Assembly (NCBI GenBank): GCA_964497255.1
Contig: CAZCCI010000001.1
Span: 69,751-133,750 of the forward strand
DNA length: 64,000 bases
DNA from: an uncultured Staphylococcus sp.
GTDB lineage: Bacteria; Bacteroidota; Bacteroidia; Bacteroidales; Muribaculaceae
Direction of reading: 5' to 3'
Shown here: one piece after another, positions 19,456 to 42,605 of the stretch
Layout: each line of letters begins with the position of its first letter
How positions within the stretch are numbered: the first letter of the stretch is position 1
The notes under the pieces: generated by a model
What the model saw: the letters and a program-made list of their open reading frames with translations, nothing else
What the model was told of the DNA's origin: nothing
Database searches by the model: none
Position numbers and translations under genes: made by a program

Positions 19456-19655
19456 AATCATTTTACTGCGCAAAGGTTGTATGCTGCGACATCTTGAAGA
19501 TGTCCTGTGGACGCTTCCGCAAGGTCGCTCTGCCAATGAACGTGTGAAAAATCTTCCTTTCCATAGGTTCGTGCCTCTCTTATGGCAAGAGTATTGTTTC
19601 ACTCAACCCCCGGCTGCCACTGAAGCCGCAAACCCTGAAATGCACATAAAATTAA
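19456..19655 (+). promoter_or_regulatory. Long imperfect hairpin, candidate ssDNA promoter (divergent copy E1)
   Basis: atttta/taaaat, tgcgca/tgcaca, aaggtt/aaccct pairing; CAAAGGTT at 19471; precedes ssb. Confidence 0.5.
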
Positions 19656-19682
19656 TTTACTCACTTCTAAAAATTTACAGAC

Positions 19683-20075
19683 ATGAAGAAAATCAGCAAC
19701 ACCTTCGAACTCTCCGGCTTCATCGCAAACGACGCCCAGATCCGCAACTTCGACACCGCATCGGTAGCCCGCTTCGCCATCTCGGTAAGCCGCGCCGAAA
19801 AGAACCAGGCCGGTGAGACATCATTCAAGTCTGCCCTCATCAACATCGAGGCATGGCGCAAGAACGAGAACCTCGACTCCTTCGACCGCCTCAAGAAAGG
19901 CGAGCACATCACCGTAACCGGCTACTTCAAGCCCGAGGAATGGACGGGTACCGACGGCAAGAAAAACCAGCGTGTCGTTCTCGTGGCAATGAAGTTCCAC
20001 CGTACTCCCGAAATGGAGGAACAGCCTGAGACTTCCGCCAAGAAATCATCCAAGAAGTCGAAGAAAGCCGCCTGA
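19683..20075 (+). CDS. ssb: Single-stranded DNA-binding protein (basic tail)
   Basis: OB fold LSGFIANDAQ..VARFAISV..INIEAW..KKGEHITVTGYFKPEEW. Confidence 0.85.
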   Translation: MKKISNTFELSGFIANDAQIRNFDTASVARFAISVSRAEKNQAGETSFKSALINIEAWRKNENLDSFDRLKKGEHITVTGYFKPEEWTGTDGKKNQRVVLVAMKFHRTPEMEEQPETSAKKSSKKSKKAA

Positions 20076-20179
20076 TACGGTTCTCCCTCATGAGATTTGC
20101 GGTCTCCGGACCGCTTTTCTTTTGCTCAGTCCGACCCTGTTATATTATTCCCTGACCTTTATAAGCCATTGCATGAATC

Positions 20180-20351
20180 CATCCGTAAGGAGTCGCGTGA
20201 TTTTATGTCGGCAAAGTTAAGGACACCTACGGATACGTCAAGGCCCGACGGCACCGTGCCACGGCATCACCCCTGCTGCTCTGGCAGCCTTGTCTTAATC
20301 CTTTCAGGTATCCTTTCTGAAGCCTGTAAAATTTCACGGCAACCCTCCCGG
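20180..20351 (+). promoter_or_regulatory. Long hairpin family A copy 1, candidate ssDNA promoter
   Basis: CAAAGTTA (20212-20219)-N19-CAA = inverted TTG-N19-TAACTTTG; caaggc/gccttg and gtgatttta/taaaatttcac stems. Confidence 0.7.
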
Positions 20352-20399
20352 AAATGAATTAAAAAAGAGGGGAATAACAACTTAAAAAACAATGTTATA

Positions 20400-20669
20400 A
20401 TGACAACAACCGAAATCACCTATCGTGATGAGACCTACACCTGCCGTGTGCTTTCAAGCAATGACGGAGAGCCGCTGATTATCGCCGGTCTTAAACTGCT
20501 TGACGCACTTATGCCGTATCCGATGACCGACAACTGCAACGGGTTTGCCGACAAAGAGGCGGAGAAAATTGATGAAGAGATTTTCTTTTATACCAATGAA
20601 TGTGATTTGAAACTGGATGATAAAAACCTTACTGAACTGATGAGGGCAAGCAATCCTGACTGGTTTTGA
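20400..20669 (+). CDS. Small acidic hypothetical protein
   Basis: ORF directly behind hairpin A1; IDEEIFFY motif shared with 23847 ORF. Confidence 0.75.
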   Translation: MTTTEITYRDETYTCRVLSSNDGEPLIIAGLKLLDALMPYPMTDNCNGFADKEAEKIDEEIFFYTNECDLKLDDKNLTELMRASNPDWF

Positions 20670-20688
20670 CAACTAAAAGAAAAAAGAT

Positions 20689-20985
20689 ATGACACGCAGA
20701 GAAGAAATAGAATCCGCCGCTAAAGATATATTCAAGGACAGCGAATATCCTGTCCCAAATATATGCTGCTTCATAAGAGGTGCTGAGTGGGCAGACAGAA
20801 ACCCATCTCCTGAATGGCATAAATTCACGGATTCCGACTGCAAACCGGAAAAAGAACAGGTAATAATCCTTGCAATAATCAACATGGAGTTCAAGATTGT
20901 TTCTTATCAATTAGTCCGCTACGACCCGATGATTCATTATTCTGGCAATGATAATGTCCGTTGGCTGGCTGTGCCCGAATTGTAG
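20689..20985 (+). CDS. Phage-like hypothetical protein
   Basis: FIRGAEWADRNP..W pattern typical of small Bacteroidetes phage/ICE proteins. Confidence 0.6.
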   Translation: MTRREEIESAAKDIFKDSEYPVPNICCFIRGAEWADRNPSPEWHKFTDSDCKPEKEQVIILAIINMEFKIVSYQLVRYDPMIHYSGNDNVRWLAVPEL

Positions 20986-21066
20986 TATTAGAATATGGGC
21001 GAATATATGAGAAAAACTTCCATAAATCTTATCTCGAAATAATTAATCAATTAATAACGCATATGT

Positions 21067-22128: not shown

Positions 22129-22280
22129 CACAATATAATTCCGATTCTTGTTTCTATTCGACCATATGTACTCTAAACATCACATTAAAAGTTTCTCAAC
22201 ACAATTTTTAATGTGTTGTCTGCTTCATAACCCTGTCTCCTCTTATAAATATATTATACCCCTTTTATTGCTGTCCCCCG

Positions 22281-22425
22281 CCCCGGCATACACGCGGATT
22301 ACTTTGGACGAGAGTCTTTCACGGCAATGCTGTATTGCCAAGAAAGACACTCGTCTGTCAAAGCGGATGGCCGAAGAATATCGCTCAGACTCGCTTGCAG
22401 GAAAGCATAGGTTACGCTACTCTCC
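22281..22425. repeat. Structured repeat family D copy 1
   Basis: ctttg-gacgag-agtctttc-ggcaat/attgcc-gaaagac-ctcgtc-caaag hairpin; paralogue at 30496. Confidence 0.6.
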
Positions 22426-22613
22426 ACTTATGCTTATCCTTACAAGTTCCCTTGACCGACACTCTTCCTGACAGCCATCCTATAATCCGCACTGATATGC
22501 CTTCCCTCCCTTCCTTCCTTACTTTTTTATTCATAGTCAGCCTATTCTATACTGCGCCAGGTTTTCCATTATAATAACAGAGCCTTTTTTAGATCTGGGG
22601 GTATCAAGTGCCA

Positions 22614-22786
22614 TCCGAAAGGGAGCCGTCGATTTTTATGTCGGCGAAGTTAAGGCCGCTCGTGGATATGCCAAGGCCCGGCGGCACGTGCCACGGCATC
22701 ACATGTGGTGCTGTGGCAGCCTTGTCTCAATCCACCGTTTCACGTCCTTTGAGATTTGCCGAAAAAATTGATTCGGCCCCTTACGG
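22614..22786 (+). promoter_or_regulatory. Long hairpin family A copy 2, candidate ssDNA promoter
   Basis: CGAAGTTA (22645-22652)-N19-CAA; arms pair caaggc/gccttg, gtggat/atccac, tcggcgaa/tttgccga. Confidence 0.7.
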
Positions 22787-22862
22787 AAACGGACTTTGAA
22801 GAAAGGGAAAAAATCAATCGCTTCACAGAAAACATAACATTAATCTTTTAGCATCAACGAAA

Positions 22863-23273
22863 ATGGAAGCTAACAACACCAACGCCAACAATGGCAAGAA
22901 GAACATCATCAACTCAACCGTAGTCAGTGGCTTCGTAGCCACCGAGCCGAAAATCACCACCTGCACCGAGGCAAGCGTTATCCGCTTCGCTCTCGCAGTC
23001 AGCAACCGGGTTACCAACAAGGCGACAGGAGAGGTTACACGCCAGTCCTCACTTATCACAGTCGAAAAGTGGGCAAAGAATACCAACCTCTCATCATTCG
23101 ACGCTATCTGAAAGGGCATCCTCGTTGAAGTCAAAGGCTACCTCAAACCTAACGAATGGAAAAACGCCGAGGGCGAAAGCCGACACCGTATTGTTCTCGC
23201 TGCAAGAAGCGTGAAGCACATTGCGAAGCCGGCATCAATGATGGAACCGCAACCTGAAGCAATCGCTTCCTAA
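22863..23273 (+). pseudogene. ssb: Second SSB paralogue with in-frame TGA at 23109-23111
   Basis: Reads ...SFDAI*KGILVEVKGYLKPNEW..., aligning to SFDRLKKGEHITVTGYFKPEEW of 19683. Confidence 0.8.
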
Positions 23274-23333
23274 TCCGAAGTCTCACATTGCCCGAGGCTC
23301 ACTCTCCGAGCCTCGGGTAAACATTAAAGCGAC

Positions 23334-23504
23334 ATGGAAGATTTTGAGGACAGTGTAATCGGATGCTTCTGCACTCTGCTTGACAGTTGGCGAGACCATG
23401 ATTGCGGAGAAATCGTTGAGGACTCCGGGAATCAATATGTAGTGCGACTGACATCAGGACAACAAATTACCTTGAGCCATGATGATGTGGTAATCTGTGA
23501 CTGA
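23334..23504 (+). CDS. 56-aa acidic protein (below ORF-track cutoff)
   Basis: MEDFEDSVIGCFCTLLDSWRDHDCGEIVEDSGNQYVVRLTSGQQITLSHDDVVICD; paralogous to 36487 ORF. Confidence 0.7.
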   Translation: MEDFEDSVIGCFCTLLDSWRDHDCGEIVEDSGNQYVVRLTSGQQITLSHDDVVICD

Positions 23505-23656
23505 CTAAAAACAATAATCGACAATCCGACCTTACTGCGCCGGATTGCCGGTATTTAACGTAGCAAGGTTCCTGTTATACTTTCTTCTTCCCCCTTTTTA
23601 ATGATGTAAGTGCCGCGCTTTTGTAATAAAACGACGGAAGGTCATTTGTAAAATTT

Positions 23657-23826
23657 TCCGATGGCCCGGGAGGGCTGCCGGTGATTCTGCGGCAAAGTTG
23701 GAGGCCGGGGTAAATGTCAAATCGGGGCCGGAGGTCACGGCTTCGCTGTGAATTTGACTCATTGCCCCTTGCGCCTCCCCTGTAATGCCTGAAATCTTAA
23801 GACAGCCCTCCGGCGGACCAAACGGA
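23657..23826 (+). promoter_or_regulatory. Long hairpin family B copy 1, candidate ssDNA promoter
   Basis: CAAAGTTG (23693-23700)-N17-CAAA; gtcaaat/atttgac, gggg/cccc, ggaggc/gcctcc, ggagggctg/cagccctcc. Confidence 0.7.
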
Positions 23827-23846
23827 TCTAACGGGAGGGATAAAAA

Positions 23847-24293
23847 ATGAACTATATGAAAGTAATATGTACTCAATGCGGAGGAATAAACGTAGCGTGT
23901 GAAGCTATGATTAATCCCAATGACAAGAAATTCCGTAATTATACGGATGACGCGTTTCTTTACGGATGGTGTGAGGACTGCGGGAACGGAGTTGTCCTCT
24001 CCAATGTCGATGAAGTGAAAACGGACATAGATAACCTCTATGCTGATTATCGTGCCGAACATGATACAGAACCTCTTTATGCGCAATGTGAAATCGTATG
24101 GAAAAAGGACGATGATTATTATGCTTATCCCAAACCGATGACCATAAAACTATCTTCCGACATTGACGATGCCACCGATGAAAAAATATTCTTCTATTGC
24201 AACGGCATCGAGGCACTTAAATCACTCGTTGAATTTGGTCGTGAGGATTTTATGCTTACTGAGTGCCTCCACTTAACAAGAGAACTGAAATAA
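23847..24293 (+). CDS. Zn-ribbon acidic hypothetical protein
   Basis: CTQC..CEDC; C-terminal TDEKIFFY motif. Confidence 0.75.
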   Translation: MNYMKVICTQCGGINVACEAMINPNDKKFRNYTDDAFLYGWCEDCGNGVVLSNVDEVKTDIDNLYADYRAEHDTEPLYAQCEIVWKKDDDYYAYPKPMTIKLSSDIDDATDEKIFFYCNGIEALKSLVEFGREDFMLTECLHLTRELK

Positions 24294-24313
24294 TATCATT
24301 AAAAATCAAAATC

Positions 24314-24796
24314 ATGCACTCTTCAGTTTATCAAATAACAACCGAAAAGGTTGAAGAAGGTGGATTACTTGATGAAGACACCTTACACCAGGGAGACTGT
24401 TCGGGACTTGACTATTGCTCGAATATTGACAACGAGGAACGCAGGGAGCGTATAGAAATCCTCGTGAACAGGATACTGCCCGAAGGAATGTTCACGCTCA
24501 TTGATGAAAACACAATCCGTTACAACGGCGGCGTGTAAATCTGGCAGGAGGAATGGGTCAAGCTGATAAAAGAAAAATGCTCGCTTGTGACTGCAGACAA
24601 TATACAGAAATGGGAAACGCTTTATTACCTTCAGGAAGCGATAGAAAATCCGCTTGATGCAGGAAGCAGGTTCTACGATGACAACTGCGGATATTCTTCC
24701 TATTCGGAGAAATCGGGAGAGTTCATGAAAAGTCTGAATAACCTTGAGGCAGGAACACTGCTTTATATAGGCGGTGTGGTTGACTATCATTATTAA
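24314..24796 (+). pseudogene. Acidic hypothetical gene split by in-frame TAA at 24536-24538
   Basis: ORFs 24263-24538 and 24587-24796 share a frame; intervening codons IWQEEWVKLIKEKCSL are open. Confidence 0.65.
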
Positions 24797-25104
24797 GCTA
24801 TGAGTCGGATAGTTTATCCGGCATGACGGACAGGCGGGATTTTGCCCTGCCTGCCCCTTCAGTGGATATGGCACAAACATCTGAGACCATATCCTTTTAT
24901 ATCAGAGAGTTCTCCTTTAAGCGCACCCGCTTTCCTCTTATATTTTCTCGTTCTTGCTCTTTTTTATATTCCTGCGCATGACAGGACTAACATTTATGTT
25001 CATAATTACTTGTCCCCCTATAGGTTTTGTCAATATCGTCAAGCCGCTACTCTTATAAATCTCCTTTTATAAAGCCATATCCCATTTTTAGGAGAATCCT
25101 TTTC

Positions 25105-25300
25105 TGTCCGGAACCGTCACTGCCGGTGGTTATCGGCGCGAAGGTCAGCATCCGGGCTTATCAGCCAAGGTTGCACGGAGTTTCTGCGAGATTTTACATC
25201 CATACTGTAAAATCATCTTGAAAACCTTGTCCCTAAAGCCTCTCGGATGCTCCTGTGTTGCGCAGATAATCACCTCATGGACGGCTCCTGAAGGAGCAGG
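25105..25300 (+). promoter_or_regulatory. Long hairpin family C copy 1, candidate ssDNA promoter
   Basis: CGAAGGTC (25139-25146)-N19-CAA; shared core AAAATCATCTTGAAAACCTTGTC. Confidence 0.65.
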
Positions 25301-25327
25301 AAAGTGAGGGAAAGAAAAATCAGATAT

Positions 25328-30316: not shown

Positions 30317-30495
30317 CATCACCATATATCTGACTTTTATTCCCTGTCCGGTTGTGAAACCAGGCAGGGATTTATTTTGTCATTATGGCATTGAACTGCG
30401 GTGGCGCAACTGCCTCTTTTAACACATAGCCTTTTCAAAAAATGCTTTATCCCCTTTGTTGCCTTCTTGCTCTCTTTTATACCGCTGCGCCCCGA

Positions 30496-30650
30496 CCCGG
30501 CATCCGCGTGGCTGACTTTGAGCGAGAGACGGCCTCGGCAATATTCCATGTTGCCCGGCCCGACACTCGCTTTCACAGCGGTAATCCGAAAAATGCCTGT
30601 CGGCCTCGAAGTCAGTACAGGCATAGGTTCCGTTTCCCTCCACTTACGCC
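30496..30650. repeat. Structured repeat family D copy 2
   Basis: agcgag/ctcgct, ggcc/ggcc, ggcaata/tgttgcc stems; shared tail GCATAGGTT.CG.T.C.CTCCACTTA. Confidence 0.6.
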
Positions 30651-30867
30651 CGTACTTCCATATCTTCGTTGACCGGCAATTTCCCTGATGGCTTACCTCT
30701 CATCCACACATGGATGCCTCCCGCCCTTCTTCCCCTTCTATTAACATGCTCCTTTTATATCGCGGATCAACTCCCTGAGCACCTGTTTCAGATATGCCGG
30801 GACATGCCAGTACACTTATATCCATCTCCGGGAACAGTTATATCCTGTACGGCTTTACAGATACCGT

Positions 30868-31035
30868 CCGTGACGGTTGCCGTGATTTTTGAATCGGCGA
30901 AGTTAAGGCCGCTCGTGGATATGCCAAGGCCCGGCGGCAGCGTGACGGGGCTTCGCCCTGTCAGCCTTGTCGTAATCCACCTGTGCAGCGACCTTCCTGA
31001 CTTGCCGAAAAAATCAGTCCGACAACCCTCCCGGA
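30868..31035 (+). promoter_or_regulatory. Long hairpin family A copy 3, candidate ssDNA promoter
   Basis: CGAAGTTA (30898-30905)-N19-CAA; left arm nearly identical to A2. Confidence 0.7.
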
Positions 31036-31096
31036 AGGAACTGATAAAAGTAAGGAAGAAAAAACAATATTTATCAACATCTTAAAAGTCAAGATT

Positions 31097-32794: not shown

Positions 32795-33034
32795 TATCCA
32801 TAATCATAAGACGATTGCAGGGGCTGTCATACGGCCTCTGCTTTCTTTATTCTGACTACACCGGTATATCCATTTATGACGGTGCCTCCATTCCGGGCCG
32901 CTCAAGCCTCTTATACTGTTTATGCCATTTCAATTACTCTTTTAATCAACGGGGGCACTGTTGATGAATCTGATTTAACGTCTGTCAGCCTTTTATAAAT
33001 TGCGGTTATTCCACTTTTAATCCTGCGCCTGTGA

Positions 33035-33190
33035 TCCGGGAGATGCCGTCCGTCGATTGTCACGGCAAAGTTGGAGGCCGGGCCAAATGTCAAATCATAG
33101 TCGGAGATCACGGCTGTCACCGTGAATTTGCCTTATTGACCCTTTTCGCCTCCCCTGAAAATGCCTGAAATCGGTCAGACAGCCCTCCGA
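33035..33190 (+). promoter_or_regulatory. Long hairpin family B copy 2, candidate ssDNA promoter
   Basis: CAAAGTTG (33066-33073)-N17-CAAA; homologous to B1. Confidence 0.7.
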
Positions 33191-33232
33191 CAGACCAAAA
33201 GGTCTGAAAAAGAGGGATAAAAATGTAAATTT

Positions 33233-33800: not shown

Positions 33801-34301
33801 ATGGTTCAATCAAAATATGATAAGTCTGTATCCGCTTGCTTCAGCGGACACCGCATCGTCCCATACTTTCATTTGAGACGACTTGAACGGCAATTAAGGA
33901 CAACGATAATCTCGGCATACGCTGACGGCTGTCGAAATTTCTTCTGCGGCATGGCTATGGGCTATGATTTGCTGGCAGCGGAAGCCGTCCTTTCTCTACA
34001 GTCTGAATTGCCGGATTTACGGCTCATTGCCGTTATTCCGTATCGTGGACAGACCGAGAGGTGGAGAGATGCCATGAAATCCCGGCATAATGACATTCTG
34101 CGTAATGCAAATGATACTGTGATTCTGAGCGAACACTACTATCAAGGCTGTCTGCTACGGCGCAATGACTATATGGTAGTCCGCAGCTCACGACTTATTG
34201 CATGGTATAACGGAAATCCTAAAGGAGGTACGTTTTACACCTGCCGTATAGCTAAGGCTAATGGATTAACGGTTATAAACCTGTATGACAGCCGTAATTA
34301 A
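33801..34301 (+). CDS. SLOG family (YspA/DUF1273-like) protein
   Basis: CFSGHR, GMAMGYDLLAAE, LRRNDYMV, GGTFYT. Confidence 0.85.
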   Translation: MVQSKYDKSVSACFSGHRIVPYFHLRRLERQLRTTIISAYADGCRNFFCGMAMGYDLLAAEAVLSLQSELPDLRLIAVIPYRGQTERWRDAMKSRHNDILRNANDTVILSEHYYQGCLLRRNDYMVVRSSRLIAWYNGNPKGGTFYTCRIAKANGLTVINLYDSRN

Positions 34302-35081: not shown

Positions 35082-35194
35082 TTCTCTATTCATTCATTTG
35101 TTAGGTATAATTATTTAAAGTGAGAAAAACTGCTTAGACGGCAACTATAAAACAACCCCTAATAATGGAATTTGTGATGCTTTTGCACATATTA

Positions 35195-35413
35195 TTCTTT
35201 CTCCGGAACCTGTCCGGTCGGGTTTATAGGCGCGAAGTTTGGCATTGGGGAGCATAGCCAAGGTCGTGCCGAAGTTTCCGCGCCATTTTGCCGGTATCCG
35301 GAAAAATCGTCTTGAAAACCTTGTCACTTGCTCCTTTGAAAGATGCCCTTGTGATGCGCAGATAAACCCCTCGCGGACGGCTCCGAAAGGAGCAATAAAC
35401 GGGAGGGGAAGAA
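35195..35413 (+). promoter_or_regulatory. Long hairpin family C copy 2, candidate ssDNA promoter
   Basis: CGAAGTTT (35233-35240)-N18-CAA; gggtttat/ataaaccc, ggcat/atgcc, caaggt/accttg. Confidence 0.7.
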
Positions 35414-35435
35414 TAAACATTCAAACAATACAGAT

Positions 35436-35630
35436 ATGCAGACAAAAAAAATGACAGTCGAACAAGGAAAGCGTTGCAACATAAGCCGTTTTCCGAACTT
35501 TCACCGTTCCGGCTCTATCAAGGGTATGAAAAAATTGTACTACGGCAAAGATGCTTTGCTTGTACGTTGCGGACAATACATCTACAACGTGACTTCAGAA
35601 CCAAGCATATATAATCAGGCAACAATCTAA
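35436..35630 (+). CDS. Small basic hypothetical protein
   Basis: FPNFHRSGSIKGMKKLYYG..LVRCGQYIYNV; first ORF after hairpin C2. Confidence 0.7.
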   Translation: MQTKKMTVEQGKRCNISRFPNFHRSGSIKGMKKLYYGKDALLVRCGQYIYNVTSEPSIYNQATI

Positions 35631-35642
35631 TACGATACGGCT

Positions 35643-36176
35643 ATGAAGAAACTGATAATCTGGACAAGCGATACCTATCTTGACGATGACGCAAGAGAGG
35701 AATATCAGCAATGTAAACGAGAAGCCATTGATGATGATGACTACTGCGTTACTGACCGTGAGTGGGCAGAAGTGGTAAACGACTATCTCAATGACGAGCG
35801 CGGAAACCTTAACAAAGATGTTGAAGGCGTGATAATTGCTTTTGCTGATGTCGGCAGGTGGGACGGCAGACGGCAGGGCTACAAGATACTTGGTAGCACC
35901 ATAAATGATATTTTCAATATCTCGGAAGATAACAACGAATGGTACTCTGACGGCAACAACATCCGTGCTATACTGTCCCACCATGACGCATCGCACTATG
36001 TGCTCTACCGGGTGGCGAAAGACCGTGAGACAGCGGAGCGTATCGCCAAGCAAATATACAACCGCGAGATAGACGAGGCAGGCTTCCGCAAGCGCACTCG
36101 CTCCCTGCACCCCTATGTCGCAGAGATTTACGGCTGGAAAGCCGGTCGTTTCAATAAAGCCCGGAAAGCGGTATGA
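35643..36176 (+). CDS. Hypothetical protein
   Basis: Coupled ORF; ADVGRWDGRRQGYK, HHDASH. Confidence 0.75.
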   Translation: MKKLIIWTSDTYLDDDAREEYQQCKREAIDDDDYCVTDREWAEVVNDYLNDERGNLNKDVEGVIIAFADVGRWDGRRQGYKILGSTINDIFNISEDNNEWYSDGNNIRAILSHHDASHYVLYRVAKDRETAERIAKQIYNREIDEAGFRKRTRSLHPYVAEIYGWKAGRFNKARKAV

Positions 36177-36490
36177 AAAGATATAAATACATCAAACATA
36201 TTGTTGACAGGCTGACCAGTTCGGACAGCAACAATGAGGAATTTACTCTCTACAACCATCTTGTAGGAAAACAAAGCGGCATGGGAGGTTTCTTCGCCGC
36301 CACCATATATTCAGGCACTGACCGATATTCGGGAGAGGTCGCCGACTTCAGTTATGACTATTGGACACACAGTCTTTATATCGAGGATGCTGAAAGCAGA
36401 CATGCGGCCGATGCCATAATCAGTGCTTTCAAATCAATCTATCCATGCTGTCTGAAAATCATAGATGACACACAAAAAGAAGATATATGA
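36173..36490 (+). CDS. Hypothetical protein
   Basis: ATGA overlap with both neighbours. Confidence 0.7.
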   Translation: MKRYKYIKHIVDRLTSSDSNNEEFTLYNHLVGKQSGMGGFFAATIYSGTDRYSGEVADFSYDYWTHSLYIEDAESRHAADAIISAFKSIYPCCLKIIDDTQKEDI

Positions 36491-36699
36491 TGATGTTTCC
36501 CGATTTCAATGACCCTGCCTGTTCGGAGCAGGGTCATTGCACCGACTTTCCCGAATATGGAAAGCAGTGCGACCTTATTGAGCCGTGGCGCGGTTATCGC
36601 CGTGGTACCATTGTGGCACAGACTCCGAAAGGCTTTGTCATACAGTTAAGTTCCGGAGCCGAGATAGATGTCTATCCCGATGAAATAGAGATTGACTGA
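36487..36699 (+). CDS. Small acidic protein, paralogue of 23334 ORF
   Basis: C.L...WR....G.IV.......V..L.SG..I....D pattern shared. Confidence 0.7.
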   Translation: MMMFPDFNDPACSEQGHCTDFPEYGKQCDLIEPWRGYRRGTIVAQTPKGFVIQLSSGAEIDVYPDEIEID

Positions 36700-36800
36700 T
36701 GCAACAGACCGCTGACTATATAGGCACGGTTTTGCCGTCCCTATGCGCGGCGGCTGCGCCCATAACCTCTTATATAAACCAATGGATTTCTTCGATATTT

Positions 36801-36852
36801 AACTATATAACGGCAAAATATTTGGATTTTTGCCGTTGTATAGTTAACTTTG
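36801..36852 (+). promoter_or_regulatory. Operator-like inverted repeat and -7 element of AbiE operon
   Basis: aactatataacggcaaaa-N9-ttttgccgttgtatagtt abutting TAACTTTG (36845-36852). Confidence 0.75.
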
Positions 36853-36873
36853 CAGCTGCAAAAATGAACTCTC

Positions 36874-37605
36874 ATGATTGAGACAAGAGCCGCGATATTA
36901 ACTTACGCAAAAAGCCGGGAATCATTCCGGTTCACTGAGTTATTGTCATATTTGAACAGTTTGTTCGAGATCTCCAAAGTGACGCTGTCATGGCATCTGA
37001 GAGAACTGGTTAAGGATAACAGCTTATTCAAACTTGGAAGAGGAATATACACTTTGCAAAATGTTCAGACACGCAAATATGTCCCGCAGCTTGGGGACAA
37101 AATAATAAAAGTCGGGAAGGAATTATCCGCCTCATTCCCCTTTATAACGATAAGTGTTTTTGACGGAAATGTTCTTGAAGGTTTTCAGCATCATTTGTCA
37201 TTGAACAACCTACATTACATAGAAGTTGAACGGGATGCGATGGAACCGGTTTTTCATTTTCTCCAGAAACAGGGATATGTAGCATATCTTAATCCAAATA
37301 AAGATTTTGTATATAACTATATTTCTATGTCGGATGAAGCATTTATTGTTAAGCCTCTTATCTCAGAGTCTCCGTTGATAGATTTCCGAGGCGTAAAGAC
37401 CCCCAGCTTAGAAAAAATACTTGTAGATGTCATTTGTGACAGTGATATGGATTATCTTCATGGGAGCGAGTGGTATAGGATGGTTGATAATGCACATTCC
37501 ATGTATGCCATAAACCGAACCTCGATGCTTCGTTATGCCTCTCGTCGCAATGCAAAACAAACTATTGAAAAGGCTATTGAAAATTTAGGAACGAATTATG
37601 ATTAA
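36874..37605 (+). CDS. AbiEi-like antitoxin (wHTH, DUF6577-like)
   Basis: N-terminal wHTH LVKDNSLFKLGRGIY; TPSLEKILVD; upstream of AbiEii-like gene. Confidence 0.75.
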   Translation: MIETRAAILTYAKSRESFRFTELLSYLNSLFEISKVTLSWHLRELVKDNSLFKLGRGIYTLQNVQTRKYVPQLGDKIIKVGKELSASFPFITISVFDGNVLEGFQHHLSLNNLHYIEVERDAMEPVFHFLQKQGYVAYLNPNKDFVYNYISMSDEAFIVKPLISESPLIDFRGVKTPSLEKILVDVICDSDMDYLHGSEWYRMVDNAHSMYAINRTSMLRYASRRNAKQTIEKAIENLGTNYD

Positions 37606-38659
37606 GGAACATTGTTTCGGCAAAGACTGGTTCCAGGCCATGTCGAAGAAATACAAATATAATGACCTTGGAATTATTGAGAAAGTAATCAGGGCATACG
37701 CATTGTTGGACTTGCTGGCTCGTTCCGGATGTCCGTATATTTTTAAGGGAGGCACATGTACGGGTCTCATCCTCGGAGACAGAACCAGACGGCTCTCAAT
37801 AGACATTGACATAATCTGTCCGCCAGGAACCAATATCGAGGAATATCTCGGCAAAATCAAGGAGTTCGGGTTTACCCGAACAGAATTGATTGAACGACGG
37901 CAGGCAGGTAAAGATATTCCTAAAAGCCACTCCAAGTTCTTTTATCAAATAGCCTATACCGACAGAGCAAATCAGGAGTCATATATTCTTCTTGATGTTC
38001 TATACGAGGATACTCATTATTATAAGGTTAACCAGACAGAGGTTATCAACCAGTTCATAGAACTTGACTCAGAACCTTCTATTGTCAAGGTACCTTCAAT
38101 AGGAGACATTCTTGGAGACAAACTGACAGCTTTTGCTCCGAATACTACCGGTATCCCTTACTATAAAAACGGGAACTCGCGCTCCACCGAGATTATGAAA
38201 CAGGTATATGACATAGGCAGGTTGTTTGATGCAGTCAAAGATCTTAAAATAACGACATACTCGTTTAAGCGAATTGCGCAAGTTGAGCTTGGATATCGAA
38301 ATCTGGGCTCAGATTTAACATTAATATTCGAAGATATTCGCCTGACGGCTATGCTGCTTGCCACAAGAGGTCTCGAGGGTGAAGGTGATTTTCCCTTGTT
38401 GCAGGACGGCATCAAACGTCTCAGCTCATTCATATATGAGAACAAATATTTTATCGAGGATGCTATTGTCGATTCTACAAAGGCGGCATATGCTTCGACC
38501 TGTATTGAGAAAGGAGTCACCGGCATTCGCAAGTTTTCGCCTTCAGACCTAACTGCAGACATGACTATTTCAAAGGCACTCCCGGGTAGGCTCAACAAAC
38601 TAAAAAAGTCAAACGCAGAAGCATTCTACTATTGGTATCTTATAGACAATATGTTGTAG
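37598..38659 (+). CDS. AbiEii-like nucleotidyltransferase toxin
   Basis: IFKGGTC, RRLSIDIDI, ILGDKLTAF, KQVYDI. Confidence 0.88.
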   Translation: MIKEHCFGKDWFQAMSKKYKYNDLGIIEKVIRAYALLDLLARSGCPYIFKGGTCTGLILGDRTRRLSIDIDIICPPGTNIEEYLGKIKEFGFTRTELIERRQAGKDIPKSHSKFFYQIAYTDRANQESYILLDVLYEDTHYYKVNQTEVINQFIELDSEPSIVKVPSIGDILGDKLTAFAPNTTGIPYYKNGNSRSTEIMKQVYDIGRLFDAVKDLKITTYSFKRIAQVELGYRNLGSDLTLIFEDIRLTAMLLATRGLEGEGDFPLLQDGIKRLSSFIYENKYFIEDAIVDSTKAAYASTCIEKGVTGIRKFSPSDLTADMTISKALPGRLNKLKKSNAEAFYYWYLIDNML

Positions 38660-38676
38660 TCTATATTAGACTGATT

Positions 38677-38719
38677 ACTATACAGCGGCAAAATTGAATA
38701 TAATTTGCCGTTATATAGT
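38677..38719. repeat. Second copy of the AbiE palindrome, downstream of toxin
   Basis: actatacagcggcaaa-N11-tttgccgttatatagt. Confidence 0.75.
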
Positions 38720-38982
38720 GCGAGAATAATTGTTTTAGAATCAACGCTCAATATATCGTTCATGCAGTTGACTGAAACGACAACATAGACCAATAATCCA
38801 CATGTGATAGGGTTAATACTTTGCCGTCTGAATTGCACATCAGGCGGCTTTTCCCATATTATAATCTCACTTTCAATCACCTTTGTAAATTGGGGGACAA
38901 GTACCATTCTTTTGCCTTCCATTACAAGTTTGGCATAGTGAATGGAATTTTATACACTGGTTGCCTCTTATATGATTGCAGT

Positions 38983-39194
38983 TTCTATTCTCCCCGGGAG
39001 CAGTCTCAGTGGTTTATGGCGCAAAGTTCGGCATCCGGGAGCGACGGCCAAGGTCAGGCGTTGTTTCGGCGAGATTTTGCAGTTACCTAAAAAATCATCT
39101 TGAAAACCTTGTCTTTCGCCCCTTGTCGATGCCCCTGTGATGCGCAAATAAACCCCTCACGACAGCTCCATCGGAGCAAGAATGAGAGGGAGAA
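38983..39194 (+). promoter_or_regulatory. Long hairpin family C copy 3, candidate ssDNA promoter
   Basis: CAAAGTTC (39022-39029)-N19-CAA; ggtttat/ataaacc, gcgca/tgcgc, ggcatc/gatgcc, caaggt/accttg, gatttt/aaaatc. Confidence 0.72.
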
Positions 39195-39222
39195 AAAACA
39201 TTCACTCCAAATATCGTAACAG

Positions 39223-39480
39223 ATGAACGAAAAAGAACTCGCACAGGCGATTGAGACCGCAGTCAACAACTACTCTTTCGACCCGAAGAAAGTAGCCTCG
39301 CAAGTACCCATGATGCACCGTACTCTCCAGCAGAGCGTCTATCGGCTCTGCAAGGCTATCATCGAGGTTATCGGGGCTGACGACTATGCCACCGACCCTC
39401 GAAACCAAGCCTCTCACAACGAGGCGAAGGCAATGCTCAACTACCTCAAGGAGCATGGACGCTCTATCCCCATGATTTGA
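39223..39480 (+). CDS. Hypothetical protein
   Basis: MHRTLQQSVYRL..DPRNQAS; first ORF after hairpin C3. Confidence 0.75.
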   Translation: MNEKELAQAIETAVNNYSFDPKKVASQVPMMHRTLQQSVYRLCKAIIEVIGADDYATDPRNQASHNEAKAMLNYLKEHGRSIPMI

Positions 39481-39503
39481 CAACCCATTAAAACCATACG
39501 AAT

Positions 39504-39755
39504 ATGAATAAGAAATTCTACCTTGTAACAATGCTGATTGAATGTTCAGCAGAATGTATAACCGACACTCACGCCCTTTATGGAAACTATGAAAAGGCTA
39601 AGGAAGCGATGGCTGTCGAAATCGAGGAAGCTGCAGAGAACTTTGACGGACGAGAGGGAGAAACTCTTGTGGATGCCGAGACCTGCCGTGAATGGCGCAC
39701 CGAAGATGGTTACGGCTATACCGTAGGCATCGAAGAACTCACTCCGATAGAATGA
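39504..39755 (+). CDS. Small strongly acidic protein
   Basis: Glu-rich 83-aa ORF in operon. Confidence 0.7.
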   Translation: MNKKFYLVTMLIECSAECITDTHALYGNYEKAKEAMAVEIEEAAENFDGREGETLVDAETCREWRTEDGYGYTVGIEELTPIE

Positions 39756-39997
39756 AGACCATGGAAACCAGAGTAGAAAAAGTTCCCACTTACGCCCTGT
39801 GTTATCTGGTTAACGACGATGCTACCGGCCTCACAGAGCAGGAAGTCAACGAGATTGACCGCCTGCTCCGTGAGCAATCCGTGGAAATCGTCTGTCCGCC
39901 TTCAGATGAAGAATGGCAACCATATTTCAGCAACTCTCCGTGGTTCGGGATGCCATGTGAGGTGATTGATTGCGACATAGTATATCGTGTAACCTGA
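39752..39997 (+). CDS. Small acidic protein
   Basis: ATGA overlap; KVPTYALCYLVNDDATGL..PYFSNSPWFG. Confidence 0.7.
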   Translation: MKTMETRVEKVPTYALCYLVNDDATGLTEQEVNEIDRLLREQSVEIVCPPSDEEWQPYFSNSPWFGMPCEVIDCDIVYRVT

Positions 39998-40010
39998 TTA
40001 TTCCTGCGAT

Positions 40011-40283
40011 ATGAAGAAATTGTTATTGATACTCTTCCTCTATCTCTTGGTGGAGGGAGATAACGTGATAGGTGACGGACTGTATGTCTATCACCGTGGC
40101 AAACACGCCGTTGATGAACTGAAAACCAAAGTCGATGAATACTATCCGAGGATTGAAGCCGTGGATTCGGTTCTGATGAAAACCTTATCGGCGGAGAGCC
40201 TGCCTGCAACTGACGGCGAAATCGACACCATACCTCCGGAACGTGAGACTGTCAGAAGAAACAGAAAGGTCATTCACAGGTAG
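40011..40283 (+). CDS. Hypothetical protein with hydrophobic N-terminus
   Basis: MKKLLLILFLYLLV signal/anchor. Confidence 0.55.
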   Translation: MKKLLLILFLYLLVEGDNVIGDGLYVYHRGKHAVDELKTKVDEYYPRIEAVDSVLMKTLSAESLPATDGEIDTIPPERETVRRNRKVIHR

Positions 40284-40857
40284 GACGTTTCTTGCCGAGC
40301 CTCTCTGTCGGTATGCCATGCTTCCGCAGTACACGGAACAGCGTGGTCTTGCTGATGTTGTTGAGCCTTAATATCTCCCCGGTATTAAGGCCGGTGAGGT
40401 ACATGCTTATGACCCGACTGTCGCGTTGTGTCCTCCGTTCCTTGGCCGACGTTTGAACCGGGGACTGCGTTTGTAGCGGCTTTTCGCCGTTTCCTTTTTT
40501 AATGTCGGCCACATCTGATGCCAGTGTCTTTAACGCCGACACTATGTTCCTGTCCGATTCGCCGTCATAGAGTATGCCGGCGGTGTCAATCCTGTCCCCG
40601 ATTGAGACTAGCCTGATATTGCGGACTTCACAATATTCCAGCAGCACAGCCAGATTGGAGCAGCCATTGACAATGTGGCATAGCCGGGGTACAATTATCT
40701 CGTCATTGTTCCCGATCTGCCTGAGAAGGGTTCTTCTCTCCGGTCTTGTCTGAGTGTCGTATCTGCTTTCCATGAATATCCGGCAACATTCCGATTCTTC
40801 AATATTCCTGACTGTTGCATCATCTGCCGAATGTAATATGTATCCGTATCTTGCCAT
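40270..40857 (-). CDS. Resolvase-like protein with C-terminal HTH, catalytic motif apparently lost
   Basis: RPERRTLL..NDEIIVPRLCHI..IRLVSIGDRIDT resolvase body; ISKTTLFRVL HTH; no YxRVS. Confidence 0.7.
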   Translation of the reverse strand: MARYGYILHSADDATVRNIEESECCRIFMESRYDTQTRPERRTLLRQIGNNDEIIVPRLCHIVNGCSNLAVLLEYCEVRNIRLVSIGDRIDTAGILYDGESDRNIVSALKTLASDVADIKKGNGEKPLQTQSPVQTSAKERRTQRDSRVISMYLTGLNTGEILRLNNISKTTLFRVLRKHGIPTERLGKKRPTCE

Positions 40858-41111
40858 CTGTAATGCGCTATTATCTTTATTTCATGCAAAGATAACACAT
40901 ATAGATAATATTATCATCTGGGCTACAGCTTTTTAACTATATAAATATAATCTCCTTTTGTAAATAATGTTAGCAAAAGTAGTCGATATTTATATACGTT
41001 TCCGTGCATCTTTCTTAGTATCTGCGACATAACCCGATTATAAATAACAGCCCCATTCATAAAGAAGATTAAAGCCTTGAACACAGGCTTTTACGGAATG
41101 TTTTACGGACT

Positions 41112-41119
41112 TATCTTTG
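41112..41119 (+). promoter_or_regulatory. Conventional -7 element for 41138 operon
   Basis: TATCTTTG 19 nt upstream of start codon. Confidence 0.55.
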
Positions 41120-41137
41120 CACCCGGATTAACCAATC

Positions 41138-41605
41138 ATGCTATTTTTAATGACAAACGGAACCATAGAAAGATTTTTAGAGTCGGGCGCGTTGAAGCTC
41201 CCGGCCATCATCAGACCGAGACTCGAAAACAGGACAGCCCGTGAGGTATATGATGATTACGCACTGCTTGACTTCTCTCTTCCTGAAGCTCTGGCTTTCG
41301 AGGATTTCTGCAATGAACTGGGCGAGTCTTACGGCACCATCGAGCTTTACCGTCACTGGCGCTCGGAAGACACCGATTACGGCCAGTCGGTGTGTGCCTT
41401 TCAGGAACCCGGCACCGGCGTGATGTTTCAGATTTGCGCCACTTCAAATTCCTGCGGGAAAATCACCGGGGTTGATGTGAAGCTGTACTTCTCTCTCGAA
41501 AGGATGCTTGCAGAGCTGCGAGAGACGCTACGCAGAGCCGCCGTGCAATCCGGCAAGTTCGCATACCGCATATCGGAAGAGGAACTGCTGAGTTATTTCC
41601 TCTGA
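41138..41605 (+). CDS. Hypothetical protein
   Basis: Long ORF with promoter; coupled to next gene. Confidence 0.7.
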   Translation: MLFLMTNGTIERFLESGALKLPAIIRPRLENRTAREVYDDYALLDFSLPEALAFEDFCNELGESYGTIELYRHWRSEDTDYGQSVCAFQEPGTGVMFQICATSNSCGKITGVDVKLYFSLERMLAELRETLRRAAVQSGKFAYRISEEELLSYFL

Positions 41606-41958
41606 TGACGGACGCCCTTGCCAACCACCTGATAGATGTCATCGACTGGCACAGGACATGGATAAAGGCTGTTGATTTCGGTTCATTCCGTAACGGAGTG
41701 GCCGTAAATGATGCGTCGATAATGAAAGTCACATCAAAGGTCTTTCGCCTTGAAGTCAGGATAGGTCTTTACGGATACAGGCGCGGAACGATAATATCAA
41801 TTCCGGAAGACCGGATTGACAAGGCTATATCCGATTGTTCCGGCCATGACAGTTCGATGATTGCACGGATCAGCACTCTTTCCCTGACATTCAATGATGT
41901 CAATATGATTTTCTCCAAAGCCTCGTGGGAAACACTCGAATTAGAACTTGAGGCATAA
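41605..41958 (+). CDS. Hypothetical protein
   Basis: TGATG overlap with upstream gene. Confidence 0.65.
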   Translation: MTDALANHLIDVIDWHRTWIKAVDFGSFRNGVAVNDASIMKVTSKVFRLEVRIGLYGYRRGTIISIPEDRIDKAISDCSGHDSSMIARISTLSLTFNDVNMIFSKASWETLELELEA

Positions 41959-41977
41959 CAAGACAAAGATTACCAAT

Positions 41978-42472
41978 ATGCAAATGTTCCTTCATTTTTA
42001 TCCGGCAATAGTCACCATGCTGTCGATGTTCTTCTATCGCCGTGATACGCCGGGGATGCAGAAGTTCTATCGCCGGATGACGTTCAGCCTGTCGGCACGC
42101 AAACTTTTCGTATCGCTCCTTATGCTGCTGATGCTCTCCTTCAACTTCTGCTATCTGCAGAGTTACGGAGTGAACTGGGCCCTTGGAGTGGGTACGGTCC
42201 TATGCCTGTCGATGTTCTCTTTCCGCATAACTGAACGCAGCATCTTCTGGCTGCAGACCCGCCTCGGCATTGGACTTGGATTCATAGCCATGCTGACCTG
42301 CGTCATCGAACCGGCGATATGGCCTCTTTCAATGAATCTATACATATTCTCTATCGGTTCGGTCTTCTATCCGTCGGAAGAACTGATGCGGCAACTGAAG
42401 TCGCCGGAGAATTTTTCCCGATATACCGCTTGTGCGGACAGCACTCTTATATCAGGATACTATTCGCGTTGA
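41978..42472 (+). CDS. Hypothetical multi-pass membrane protein
   Basis: Several hydrophobic segments. Confidence 0.7.
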   Translation: MQMFLHFYPAIVTMLSMFFYRRDTPGMQKFYRRMTFSLSARKLFVSLLMLLMLSFNFCYLQSYGVNWALGVGTVLCLSMFSFRITERSIFWLQTRLGIGLGFIAMLTCVIEPAIWPLSMNLYIFSIGSVFYPSEELMRQLKSPENFSRYTACADSTLISGYYSR

Positions 42473-42605
42473 CTCCGGGAGGGTTGTCGTTCTGCAAAGT
42501 TAATCGCCGCATCCGGTTACTCTCCAAAACGGGCCGCCGGTCTCGCTGAGATTTTGGTTCGTAAGATACGGCAACTTGTATGGCAGAAAACAACCCGTTT
42601 CCCGA
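42473..42605 (+). promoter_or_regulatory. Long hairpin F1, candidate ssDNA promoter nearest oriT
   Basis: CAAAGTTA (42495-42502)-N22-CAAA; gggttgt/acaaccc, ttctgc/gcagaa, gccg/cggc, ccaaaa/ttttgg. Confidence 0.65.

Follow-up and report, generated by a model that had tools for sequence, protein, structure and literature searches.

The closest described systems are the entry promoters of E. coli plasmids that act in single-stranded DNA (ssDNA), namely Frpo1/Frpo2 (ssp1a/b), ssp2 and ssp3 of F, and ssi1-3 with the class 2 and class 3 elements of ColIb-P9/pESBL (IncI1). Enterobacterial ssDNA promoters are reportedly inactive as duplex. By analogy, pESBL is the nearest parallel to the locus described here; six of its ssDNA promoters, which fall into three unrelated classes, have been validated by 5′-RACE, and each precedes an operon of the leading region, in one case encoding a methylase (PMC12672017). 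Samuel et al. 2024 reported Frpo-like candidates in leading-region anti-defence islands. Since similarity to known Frpo/ssi elements or to E. coli −35/−10/UP sequences was required, that survey could not find the elements presented below, and Bacteroidota are not mentioned in the paper. The RNA polymerase (RNAP)-dependent single-strand origins ssoA/ssoU of the pMV158 family and sso1 of ICEBs1 are tied to MobV/MobT relaxase modules, and the strand on which they work is the transferred or the displaced one (PMC4595007; PMC5737340; PMC5090054). No literature report of ssDNA promoters of the Frpo/ssp type in Bacteroidota was found.

The window, that is, the whole stretch of 64,000 nt that was analysed, holds a chromosomally integrated mobile element of a gut Bacteroidales, with a Bacteroidota-type T4SS, a tyrosine integrase (16320..17423, + strand) at its left end beside mnmE (13574-15022), and a relaxase gene (44307..45797, + strand). 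Nine imperfect hairpins of 143-247 nt each lie in the gaps between its + strand operons. With a probability of about 0.6, these are ssDNA promoters of the Frpo/ssi/ssp type built on the Bacteroidota σA consensus; judged by their sequence, they look like the Bacteroidota counterpart, not described so far, of the E. coli plasmid entry promoters. The observations behind this reading concern structure, motif, strand bias, covariation, where the hairpins lie with respect to genes and relaxase, and the absence of any other promoters. The initial annotation had placed a relaxase and a candidate oriT to the right of the array, and both were recovered there: the relaxase belongs to the MobV family (it scores 166 bits where the cut-off is 100), and immediately upstream of its gene a conserved oriT-like cluster of five small hairpins in a run (44150..44300) covaries between relaxase lineages, with an invariant GCCTAATA in the loop of GGGTA/TACCC.

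All nine hairpins carry their promoter boxes on the − strand. The family A hairpins have a spacer of 19 and lie at 20176..20360 (−7 box TAACTTTG at 20212-20219, −33 TTG at 20239-20241), preceding an ORF at 20400-20669 and then DUF1848 at 21067; at 22606..22796 (TAACTTCG, 22645-22652; TTG, 22672-22674), preceding an SSB-like ORF at 22863; and at 30864..31038 (TAACTTCG, 30898-30905; TTG, 30925-30927), preceding ParB (31097-32794). Family B, with a spacer of 17, is found at 23657..23826 (CAACTTTG, 23693-23700; TTTG ending at 23720) before an ORF at 23847-24293, and at 33030..33205 (CAACTTTG, 33066-33073; TTTG ending at 33093) before an ORF at 33233-33799 and a YpsA/SLOG gene at 33801-34301. The family C hairpin at 25079..25325 (GACCTTCG, 25139-25146; TTG, 25166-25168; spacer 19) leads an N6-methylase/SNF2-helicase gene of 1662-1670 aa that ends at 30316, and those at 35195..35420 (AAACTTCG, 35233-35240; TTG, 35259-35261; spacer 18) and 38976..39210 (GAACTTTG, 39022-39029; TTG, 39049-39051; spacer 19) lead small ORFs at 35436-36699 and 39223-40283, respectively. 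The hairpin closest to the relaxase, of family F (42469..42611; TAACTTTG, 42495-42502; TTTG ending at 42527; spacer 22), precedes ORFs at 42630-43034 and 43192-44034. Among the products of the hairpin-led operons are SSBs, a methylase-helicase, ParB and a SLOG protein, together with many small proteins.

The initial annotation had claimed ten such hairpins, each just upstream of a + strand operon, with promoter boxes in the left arm that read on the − strand. When folded with DNA parameters, nine sites gave long imperfect hairpins; these nine have the boxes in that arm, and their bases lie 16-67 nt before a + strand ATG. The spacers counted by hand (19/19/19, 17/17, 19/18/19 and 22) were exact on recount. 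The tenth claimed element, at 19456 (19440..19600, − strand), was rejected: its AACCTTTG box lacks a properly spaced TTG and is wholly paired within a branched long-range fold, and its fold z-score of −0.8 (rank 637 of 3191) is no outlier. A branched structured module of a further family, D (22270..22510, − strand), 100-150 nt to the left of a family A hairpin, is the strongest fold outlier in the window, and a second copy (30480..30730, − strand) lies to the left of the hairpin at 30868.

No + strand promoter motif was found in the gaps upstream of the nine operons, and intrinsic + strand terminators upstream of several hairpins separate several of these operons from one another. The sole conventional intergenic + strand promoter motif of the block (TTG-N20-TAACTTTG, 36822..36852) overlaps a palindrome at 36799-36847 and precedes a DUF6577/AbiEii cassette, an insertion that relatives lack.

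The σA consensus of Bacteroidota consists of a −33 TTG and a −7 TAnnTTTG, in place of the −35/−10 elements of E. coli. This −33/−7 pattern, in the form TTG-N17-22-nAnnTTYG, occurs at 9/9 sites, where the − strand hairpin carries it in its 3′ arm; nine matches on one strand within 23 kb compare with ~0.4 expected from the genome-wide rate, and no other cluster of hairpins with the motif exists in the 2.48-Mb genome. Across 82 related loci, hairpin-embedded motifs were antisense in 62 cases and sense in one, and a reversed-motif control gave 2-3 matches. Several features not imposed by the search were also recovered: T at the first position of the −7 box in 10 of 20 families (background 26%), a spacer mode of 19, and an A-run 6-10 nt downstream of the −7 box. 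Against the ssDNA-promoter reading counts the −33 element, which is TTG rather than TTTG, the preceding T being present in just 5 of 20 families.

A blind scan of the window for folds, in 200-nt segments, placed the nine hairpins 2nd to 119th among 3191 segments, five of them within approximately the ten top outliers; they are also richer in G+C than the flanking DNA. The −33 CCTTG is paired with CAAGG, and mismatches lie opposite the −7 box. Among 21 representatives, the −33 TTG has a pair probability of 0.92, positions 1-6 of the −7 box are mostly unpaired (0.28-0.53), and its last G and the two following bases are again paired (0.93-0.94). A bubble at the −7 box had been noted earlier for families A-C; it is present there, but that restriction was too narrow since the bubble is general across families. 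In family C, 94.6% of cells are paired and 10 pairs show double compensatory changes; the covariation score of 0.223 compares with 0.106 for shuffles (0/500 reach 0.223) and with 0.055 or less for slid controls. Among homologues picked by sequence alone, the − strand fold was the more stable in families A (9:2), B (8:1), C (16:7) and F (6:0), whereas the thermodynamic strand asymmetry across families was not significant (13 vs 10 families, p = 0.13), candidate selection here being biased against the hypothesis.

The same design was found in elements of Bacteroides, Phocaeicola, Parabacteroides, Paraprevotella, Odoribacter and Muribaculaceae, in ∼20 sequence families with no nucleotide similarity to one another, some of which precede orthologous ParB and methylase-helicase genes. 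At 23 relaxase-anchored loci, 17 hairpins lay upstream of the relaxase, one downstream and none on the sense strand. Together with the strand bias, the bubble at the −7 box and the operons without + strand promoters, this placement and the convergence of non-homologous families on one design strongly support the ssDNA-promoter reading. In distant elements, 20 of 30 hairpins had an ORF no more than 100 nt downstream, compared with 18% for random positions.

Were the − strand of the element to become single-stranded, which would most likely happen when it arrives in a new recipient as the transferred strand, each hairpin would fold back on itself. Its 3′ arm would then serve as the non-template strand, in which the −33 box is paired and the −7 box, largely unpaired, acts as a ready-made transcription bubble. 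RNAP would start a few bases beyond the −7 box, near the conserved A-run, copy the 5′ arm, leave through the hairpin base and enter the + strand operon 16-67 nt on. This strand geometry, proposed by the initial annotation, was re-derived with the same outcome, and the anatomy of the hairpins suits an ssDNA promoter well. Synthesis of the complementary strand would abolish the hairpin and leave the boxes facing away from the genes, so that expression would be transient; the transcripts may additionally prime complementary-strand synthesis, as those of Frpo do. In this model, transfer of the − strand, use of the sites by Bacteroidota RNAP and the timing of expression are inferred. If so, each hidden promoter would drive its gene only while one DNA strand is folded alone.

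The main weakness of the ssDNA-promoter reading is transfer polarity. Two MobV relaxases have mapped nicks, MobM of pMV158 (PMC5737340) and MobSag of IMESag (PMC5090054), and because both nick upstream of their own gene on its coding strand, analogy would have the + strand transferred here with the relaxase gene entering first. The earlier argument that the geometry agrees with − strand entry is therefore not established: ORFs on either side of the relaxase face it, including two ArdC-type genes on the side opposite the hairpins, so gene content does not fix polarity, and the oriT-like core is palindromic and thus gives no clue to the strand. With + strand transfer, the − strand hairpins would never fold in the recipient. 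The boxes, near-consensus and complete on one strand, exist on the duplex too and could be ordinary leftward promoters with an antisense or insulator role, or they could fire in the donor on the non-transferred strand while it is transiently single; in F donors, too, ssDNA builds up while transfer proceeds (PMC9849209). We consider this unlikely, since a duplex promoter needs no opposite arm; it would leave unexplained the conserved covarying pairing, the bubble exactly at the −7 box in unrelated families and the fixed spacing from the ATG that follows. It would also leave nine operons without a promoter, and the side entering first would have no hairpin promoter on either strand and no sso-like structure. 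Similarly improbable is that the hairpins are sso-type origins, at which a folded promoter yields a short primer for the complementary strand and no gene expression. The physical design is identical, in that host RNAP recognises folded ssDNA as its promoter (PMC4595007), MobV belongs to the world of pMV158, in which the mob cassette has sso sites on its flanks (PMC5737340), and transcripts from Frpo serve in vivo as primers for DNA synthesis; yet priming alone explains neither nine copies 16-67 nt before an ATG, co-oriented with operons that have no other promoter, nor the proximity to ORFs in distant elements. Since a single-stranded − strand is needed equally in both cases, sso activity would be better seen as an additional role than as a competing explanation.

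The position of the hairpins, and covarying stems around a conserved internal loop (CRAAGTTA on the + strand), would also be typical of structured 5′ leaders of the + strand mRNAs in which the loop binds a regulator or aids processing or stability. However, no Rfam match was obtained at gathering or permissive thresholds, the hairpins have terminators rather than + strand promoters just upstream, the better fold in sequence-selected homologues is that of the − strand, and in ∼20 unrelated families the conserved bases and their spacing match, on the opposite strand, the consensus of host promoters. All this makes an RNA element quite improbable. Several copies per family, a length of 140-250 nt and hairpin-forming ends recall MITE-like selfish or neutral repeats with long terminal inverted repeats and chance outward promoters. 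Such an origin is very improbable, given that 151 of 154 homologous matches share one orientation, that every copy occupies a gap that precedes an operon, that unrelated families have reached the same architecture, and that the cluster is confined to the element; by BLAST, family A was present inside the element only and in 0/40 relatives.

Taken together, the locus resembles F and IncI1 in having long imperfect hairpins of one strand whose stems rebuild both promoter boxes of the host sigma factor, present in several copies and several unrelated sequence classes per element. The hairpins are likewise G+C-richer than their surroundings, each lies upstream of an establishment/anti-defence operon (ssb, methylase, anti-restriction), and the genes are oriented towards oriT. 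Unlike F and IncI1, which are plasmids with MOBF/MOBP relaxases, the host is an integrated element with a tyrosine integrase, MobV and a Bacteroidota-type T4SS, and nine copies occur in 23 kb. The boxes here are near-consensus, making reverse duplex activity plausible. As with ssoA/ssoU and sso1, an orientation-specific folded ssDNA would be read by host RNAP; those sites, however, yield a short primer, number one or two per element and lie downstream of the relaxase on its sense strand, whereas the nine hairpins are upstream, on the antisense strand and directly before operons. The idea is that of Frpo′ and Frpo* (Samuel et al. 2024), namely hairpins that precede T-strand-oriented ssb, methylase and anti-defence genes. 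The families, mutually without detectable nucleotide similarity, are set apart from Frpo/ssi by phylum and by promoter grammar, with a Bacteroidota −33 TTG and −7 TAnnTTTG at a spacing of ∼19 instead of TTGACA-N17-TATAAT.

The left part of the window consists of chromosomal genes (a purL fragment, etf, acyl-CoA dehydrogenase, glycine-cleavage genes and mnmE at 13574-15022), beyond which a mobile element begins. In order, the element carries an HTH/excisionase-like gene (15301), a tyrosine integrase gene (16320-17423), a 25-kb block of + strand genes and a + strand MobV relaxase gene (44307-45797; NCBIfam MobV, 166 bits against a cut-off of 100) next to an OmpA-like gene. The + strand block encodes an SSB (19683), a DUF1848 protein, a second SSB-like ORF, a 1670-aa N6-methylase/SNF2-helicase, ParB, a YpsA/SLOG protein, a DUF6577/AbiEii cassette and many small ORFs. 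Right of the relaxase, a long - strand block encodes two ArdC-type proteins, M23/glucosaminidase hydrolases and a Toprim protein. With Pfam and NCBIfam, no T4SS components were identified on the right-hand side of the window or over the following 40 kb; a TraG/VirB4 gene of the Bacteroidota type (Bac_Flav_CT_G) lies on the - strand at the contig end, about 55 kb past the window (G000:C1:188082-189294, the window's own contig), in the orientation of the whole right-hand block. Since TraG/VirB4 is on the same contig, and since the right-hand and left blocks are syntenic in close relatives, the whole structure looks like one element of more than 100 kb. A MobV relaxase together with a Bacteroidota-type T4SS on an element of this size is an unusual pairing. 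Smaller relatives at three loci (L046, L048 and L049) have the same mnmE-adjacent integrase and orf280-MobV module with only ~4.8 kb in between; these seem to be a minimal form of the element, in which no more than one hairpin promoter is present (L048 4539-4776).

An array of ten hairpins had been described in the + strand block. Folding with DNA parameters was carried out on both strands, and all ten sites fold on each; nine form a single dominant long hairpin of 143-247 nt and carry promoter-like boxes, and for these the description holds. In a blind scan of the whole 64 kb in 200-nt windows, with energy regressed on G+C (n = 3191 windows), hairpins 30868, 25105, 42473, 35195 and 22614 (named by start position) ranked 2nd, 5th, 12th, 15th and 17th, and the other four confirmed hairpins 39th, 69th, 90th and 119th. 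The tenth site, 19456, was excluded from the set: it ranked 637th of 3191 (z = -0.8), and its AACCTTTG is present without a suitably spaced TTG and is completely paired within a branched long-range fold.

Read on the - strand, hairpins 20180, 22614 and 30868 (family A) carry the boxes TTG-N19-TAACTT(T/C)G; hairpins 23657 and 33035 (family B) carry TTTG-N17-CAACTTTG; hairpins 25105, 35195 and 38983 (family C) carry TTG-N19/18/19-(G/A)A(C/A)CTT(C/T)G; and hairpin 42473 (family F) carries TTTG-N22-TAACTTTG. The spacers counted by hand in the initial annotation were reproduced exactly when anchored on the -7-like core. The general form TTG-N17-22-nAnnTTYG was present in the 3′ arm of the - strand hairpin in all nine cases, with 26-39 nt from the -7 box to the hairpin base and 16-67 nt from the base to the next ATG. 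A repeat finder with default seeds recovered none of the ten hairpins, since they are too imperfect. With a loose detector (TTG-N16-23-nAnnTTYG, at least 60% of the motif region paired toward the 5′ side, energy <= -30 kcal/mol), the window's 2.48-Mb genome gave 92 matches, nine of them on one strand inside 22.3 kb of the element; the remaining matches were single and scattered, at a background of ~0.4 per strand per 23 kb. The nine-site observation is sound and far beyond chance.

The co-oriented genes behind the hairpins include those for SSB, the methylase-helicase, ParB and the SLOG protein. A search of the + strand with a relaxed promoter motif between 15 and 47.5 kb gave six occurrences and none upstream of the nine hairpin operons (0/9). 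One occurrence (36822-36852) fell in a gap upstream of a gene, before the AbiE cassette, where it overlaps a 20-nt palindrome; it is the only conventional promoter motif in an upstream gap of the block. Intrinsic + strand terminators were found upstream of hairpins at 18869, 20099, 30398, 32817 and 35049. Since + strand motifs are lacking and terminators lie between them, the nine operons are taken to be separate units.

Several features of this block were observed in passing. The DUF6577/AbiEii cassette (36776-38988) is missing in the close relatives L038, L052 and L053, in which synteny restarts exactly at the cassette edges; the hairpin block acquired it recently by insertion. An in-frame TGA (23109-23111) interrupts the second SSB-like ORF (22863-23275), which follows hairpin 22614 and is either a pseudogene or the source of two short products. 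Small ORFs of 56-177 aa directly follow hairpins at 20400-20985, 23334-24796, 35436-36699 and 39223-40283; those tested had no Pfam match, and they are natural candidates for early anti-defence proteins.

Since the genes lie on the + strand, their template is the - strand. The - strand hairpin consists, from 5′ to 3′, of the complement of the right arm, the loop and the complement of the left arm, and the boxes, located in the 3′ arm, run from the loop toward the base, which would make this arm the non-template strand. RNAP would copy the 5′ arm (3′ to 5′), exit at the hairpin base and continue on the - strand into the downstream + strand genes. When the DNA is duplex, these boxes instead face left and thus away from the downstream genes. 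The geometry derived here agrees with that of the initial annotation, and its logic matches that of the folded-hairpin promoter Frpo (PMC9849209).

The likeness of these boxes to promoters was assessed on 20 families, each represented by a single hairpin. In 10 of these the -7 box opens with T (background 26%), giving the full TAnnTTTG; the spacer is 17-19 nt in 14 families, with a mode of 19, and a C directly follows the -7 box in 14. Transcription could plausibly start in an A-run located 6-10 nt downstream of the box. At -33 the element is TTG rather than TTTG, the preceding T being found in just 5 of the 20. Base-pair probabilities averaged across 21 representatives, whose selection set no location for unpaired bases, showed the -33 TTG and the three preceding bases to be paired (0.89-0.94), followed by a small loop (0.34-0.45) and a spacer paired at ~0.8. 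Positions 1-6 of the -7 box are largely unpaired (0.28-0.53), and its last G and the following two bases are paired again (0.93-0.94). Since the A-run pairs well (0.8-0.94), AT-richness is ruled out as the cause of the bubble. The bubble had been noted for families A-C, where it is indeed seen; its restriction to those families falls away, the feature being general across the profile.

Relatives were gathered via the ParB and relaxase proteins, giving 82 loci. A sequence search of these with the ten elements returned 154 matches, 151 of them in the window orientation and all confined to 15 close loci. A sequence-independent detector requiring at least 70% pairing found 62 motifs antisense to the anchor gene and 1 sense; a reversed-motif control gave 3 and 2. 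Loci with ParB 55-63% identical have unrelated hairpins with the same motif and geometry, in Bacteroides, Phocaeicola, Parabacteroides, Paraprevotella, Odoribacter, Palleniella and Muribaculaceae, and several of these hairpins lie upstream of orthologous ParB or 1660-aa methylase-helicase genes. In all, ~20 sequence families share the hairpin design, and at the distant loci 20 of 30 hairpins are located within 100 nt upstream of a co-oriented ORF, compared with 18% for random positions. At three loci (L026, L027 and L036) ParB is followed on its own strand, 6-10 kb downstream, by a MobV gene (52-58% identical); thus the order of hairpin operons followed by MobV is conserved and the hairpin sequences are not. 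The L036 contig (JAMPEL010000040.1), with a Bacteroidales-type element, ParB, MobV and three hairpin promoters, is binned as a Roseburia MAG, which is probably a binning error.

Within 10 kb on each side of the relaxase at 23 loci, some of which overlap on the same contigs so that the counts are not fully independent, 17 hairpin promoters lay upstream and 1 downstream, with none on the sense strand. BLAST of a family A hairpin against 40 related genomes gave no match outside the window's own genome; the hairpins move with the element rather than with the host lineage. MITE-like repeats are very unlikely, as the hairpins cluster only within the element in the 2.48-Mb genome and 151 of the 154 homologous matches are co-oriented.

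Conservation of the fold was examined by covariation. The 13 family C copies, which are related to each other and supplied from the same alignment the structure that was scored, had 94.6% of cells paired, changes on both sides in 10 of 36 pairs (as high in 1 of 500 shuffles) and a covariation score of 0.223, compared with 0.106 for shuffles (reached by 0 of 500) and at most 0.055 with partners slid by 1-3 columns; one covarying helix lies within the promoter spacer. In family A, the boxes and the opposing GACAAGGCTG are invariant, and the spacer and lower stem vary between subfamilies with compensating changes; MAFFT and RNAalifold recovered the stem only in part because the lower stems of the subfamilies were misaligned. 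As to which strand folds, candidates selected on their - strand fold favored that strand by 61 to 19, a count biased by the selection, and those selected on their + strand fold gave 13 versus 10 families (p = 0.13, not significant). Among homologues chosen by sequence alone, the - strand fold was more stable by 9:2 in family A, 8:1 in B and 6:0 in F, and by 16:7, not significant, in C. This advantage is consistent and modest, and lends weak support to folding of the - strand.

A further family, D, comprises two branched modules (22270-22510 and 30480-30730) that stand out more than any other fold in the window (z = -5.1). Within the element and its relatives, family D always lies 100-150 nt left of a family A hairpin. 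The two window copies differ by compensating changes, and the - strand fold was the more stable in all nine homologues, by a mean of 8 kcal/mol. No promoter motif was found in these modules, which may serve for priming or, like F ssp2, as an obstacle to synthesis of the complementary strand.

A good candidate for oriT, on sequence grounds, is located at 44150-44300. When the sequences preceding the relaxase gene were aligned for the window and 19 related loci (20 in total), they revealed five small hairpins that covary between the close and the 52%-identity relaxase groups (identity range 52-97%). The sole invariant stretch is GCCTAATA, in the loop of a GGGTA/TACCC stem (GGTATA/TATACC in the far group), a hairpin whose shape resembles pMV158 IR3 (AAGTATA-GTGTGT-TATACTT). 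The region also has two mirror-image palindromes centred on GCTTGC/GCAAGC, and + strand GTGCGC motifs resembling the pMV158 nick site are kept only among close relatives. The core is palindromic and has an inverted repeat 5′ of it on both strands, and thus favors neither strand for the nick.

The polarity of transfer is where the proposal is weakest. From the orientation of the cargo genes, the initial annotation had argued that the - strand enters first; this does not follow, because the right-hand - strand block also faces the relaxase and carries ArdC genes. The MobV prototypes depart from the F paradigm: pMV158 MobM (PMC5737340) and IMESag MobSag (PMC5090054) cut at GTG(T/C)G/T, a site that precedes their own gene on its coding strand, and the module order oriT-mob-ssoA of these prototypes brings the mob gene first into the recipient, as the sense strand. 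By analogy with the prototypes, the + strand would be transferred here, which is a real prior against the ssDNA-promoter model; our literature search found nothing on the transfer polarity of Bacteroidales MobV elements. All hairpins lie on the same side of the MobV gene and the candidate oriT, and the side that + strand transfer would bring in first has no hairpin promoter on either strand and no sso-like intergenic structure. If the + strand were transferred, the nine operons would be left without a promoter and the hairpins without a role. The prototype prior still stands, but is outweighed by the coherence of the hairpin evidence. Single-strand origins of the ssoA/ssoU type were also rejected: one or two sites would be expected, downstream of rep/mob on the sense strand and with RSB/CS-6, and here there are nine, upstream and antisense; the relaxase is followed by no structured intergenic element. 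A known structured RNA family was excluded by Rfam 15, which gave no match at gathering score in the whole window and only chance-level miRNA and sRNA matches at E up to 5.

We therefore favor, with a probability of about 0.6, the reading that the nine hairpins are candidate ssDNA promoters fitted to Bacteroidota sigma-A, possibly also serving as primer sites. A more elaborate proposal is that they are widespread, independently evolved Bacteroidota fold-back promoters that fire one way or the other according to whether the DNA is single-stranded or duplex. While the incoming DNA is single-stranded, transcription would enter the establishment and anti-defence operons; after conversion to duplex, the near-consensus sigma-A boxes would fire the opposite way, and the antisense transcripts would help hold the operons silent in the integrated element. 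The family D modules would delay complementary-strand synthesis and so lengthen the single-stranded window, as F ssp2 does, and MobV here would therefore have to nick the template strand of its own gene, the reverse of the Firmicutes prototypes. That all of these components hold together is unlikely.

If the nine hairpins are indeed ssDNA promoters, a -33/-7 motif in a hairpin 3′ arm with a bubble at the -7 box would be a computable signature, and, in Bacteroidota elements, such hairpins would reveal which strand is transferred and where the leading region lies. Dozens of small uncharacterised proteins behind them would be flagged as candidate early anti-defence factors, and microbiome engineering would gain parts for transient expression coupled to delivery. 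Repeated origins of the design, in ~20 sequence families unrelated to each other and on another sigma factor consensus, would argue for ssDNA promoters as a solution of general use in conjugation. Among gut Bacteroidales, whose promoters follow a different grammar, large mobile elements are exchanged at a high rate. A mechanism under active study would thus be extended to the dominant gut phylum in a directly testable form.

We know of no experimental demonstration of ssDNA promoters other than those of enterobacterial IncF/IncI plasmids, where they set the timing of anti-defence gene expression and of the first minutes in which the plasmid establishes itself; the in vitro demonstration of Frpo reportedly dates from 1997. 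In vivo, early leading genes are driven by Frpo1 and Frpo2 (PMC9849209), and six operons of pESBL have 5′-RACE-confirmed ssDNA promoters, which fall into three classes (two without homology to Frpo) and reportedly show no activity in duplex form (PMC12672017). A further effect of F ssp2 is the stalling of complementary-strand synthesis (bioRxiv 10.64898/2026.01.09.698686), and RNAP-dependent sso sites are another relative of hairpin promoters (PMC4595007). The search of Samuel et al. 2024 for Frpo-like sites relied on similarity and on the E. coli consensus, and their paper makes no mention of Bacteroidota. In agreement with the initial annotation, no description of ssDNA promoters in Bacteroidota was found in the full-text literature searched, whose coverage omits most subscription journals. 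Since the box consensus differs and there is no Rfam match, homology to F Frpo or ColIb-P9 ssi, judged on these two grounds and not by sequence alignment, is unlikely. Nevertheless, the nine hairpins most likely work like Frpo/ssp, membership in this class being a matter of mechanism and not of sequence family. Like the members of the Frpo/ssi/ssp class, they form a long, stable, imperfect hairpin in one strand; the stem of the class rebuilds housekeeping-sigma boxes, which are predicted here with the -33 paired and the -7 bubbled; and, as in the class, they lie directly upstream of co-oriented establishment or anti-defence operons in which no duplex promoter motif was found.
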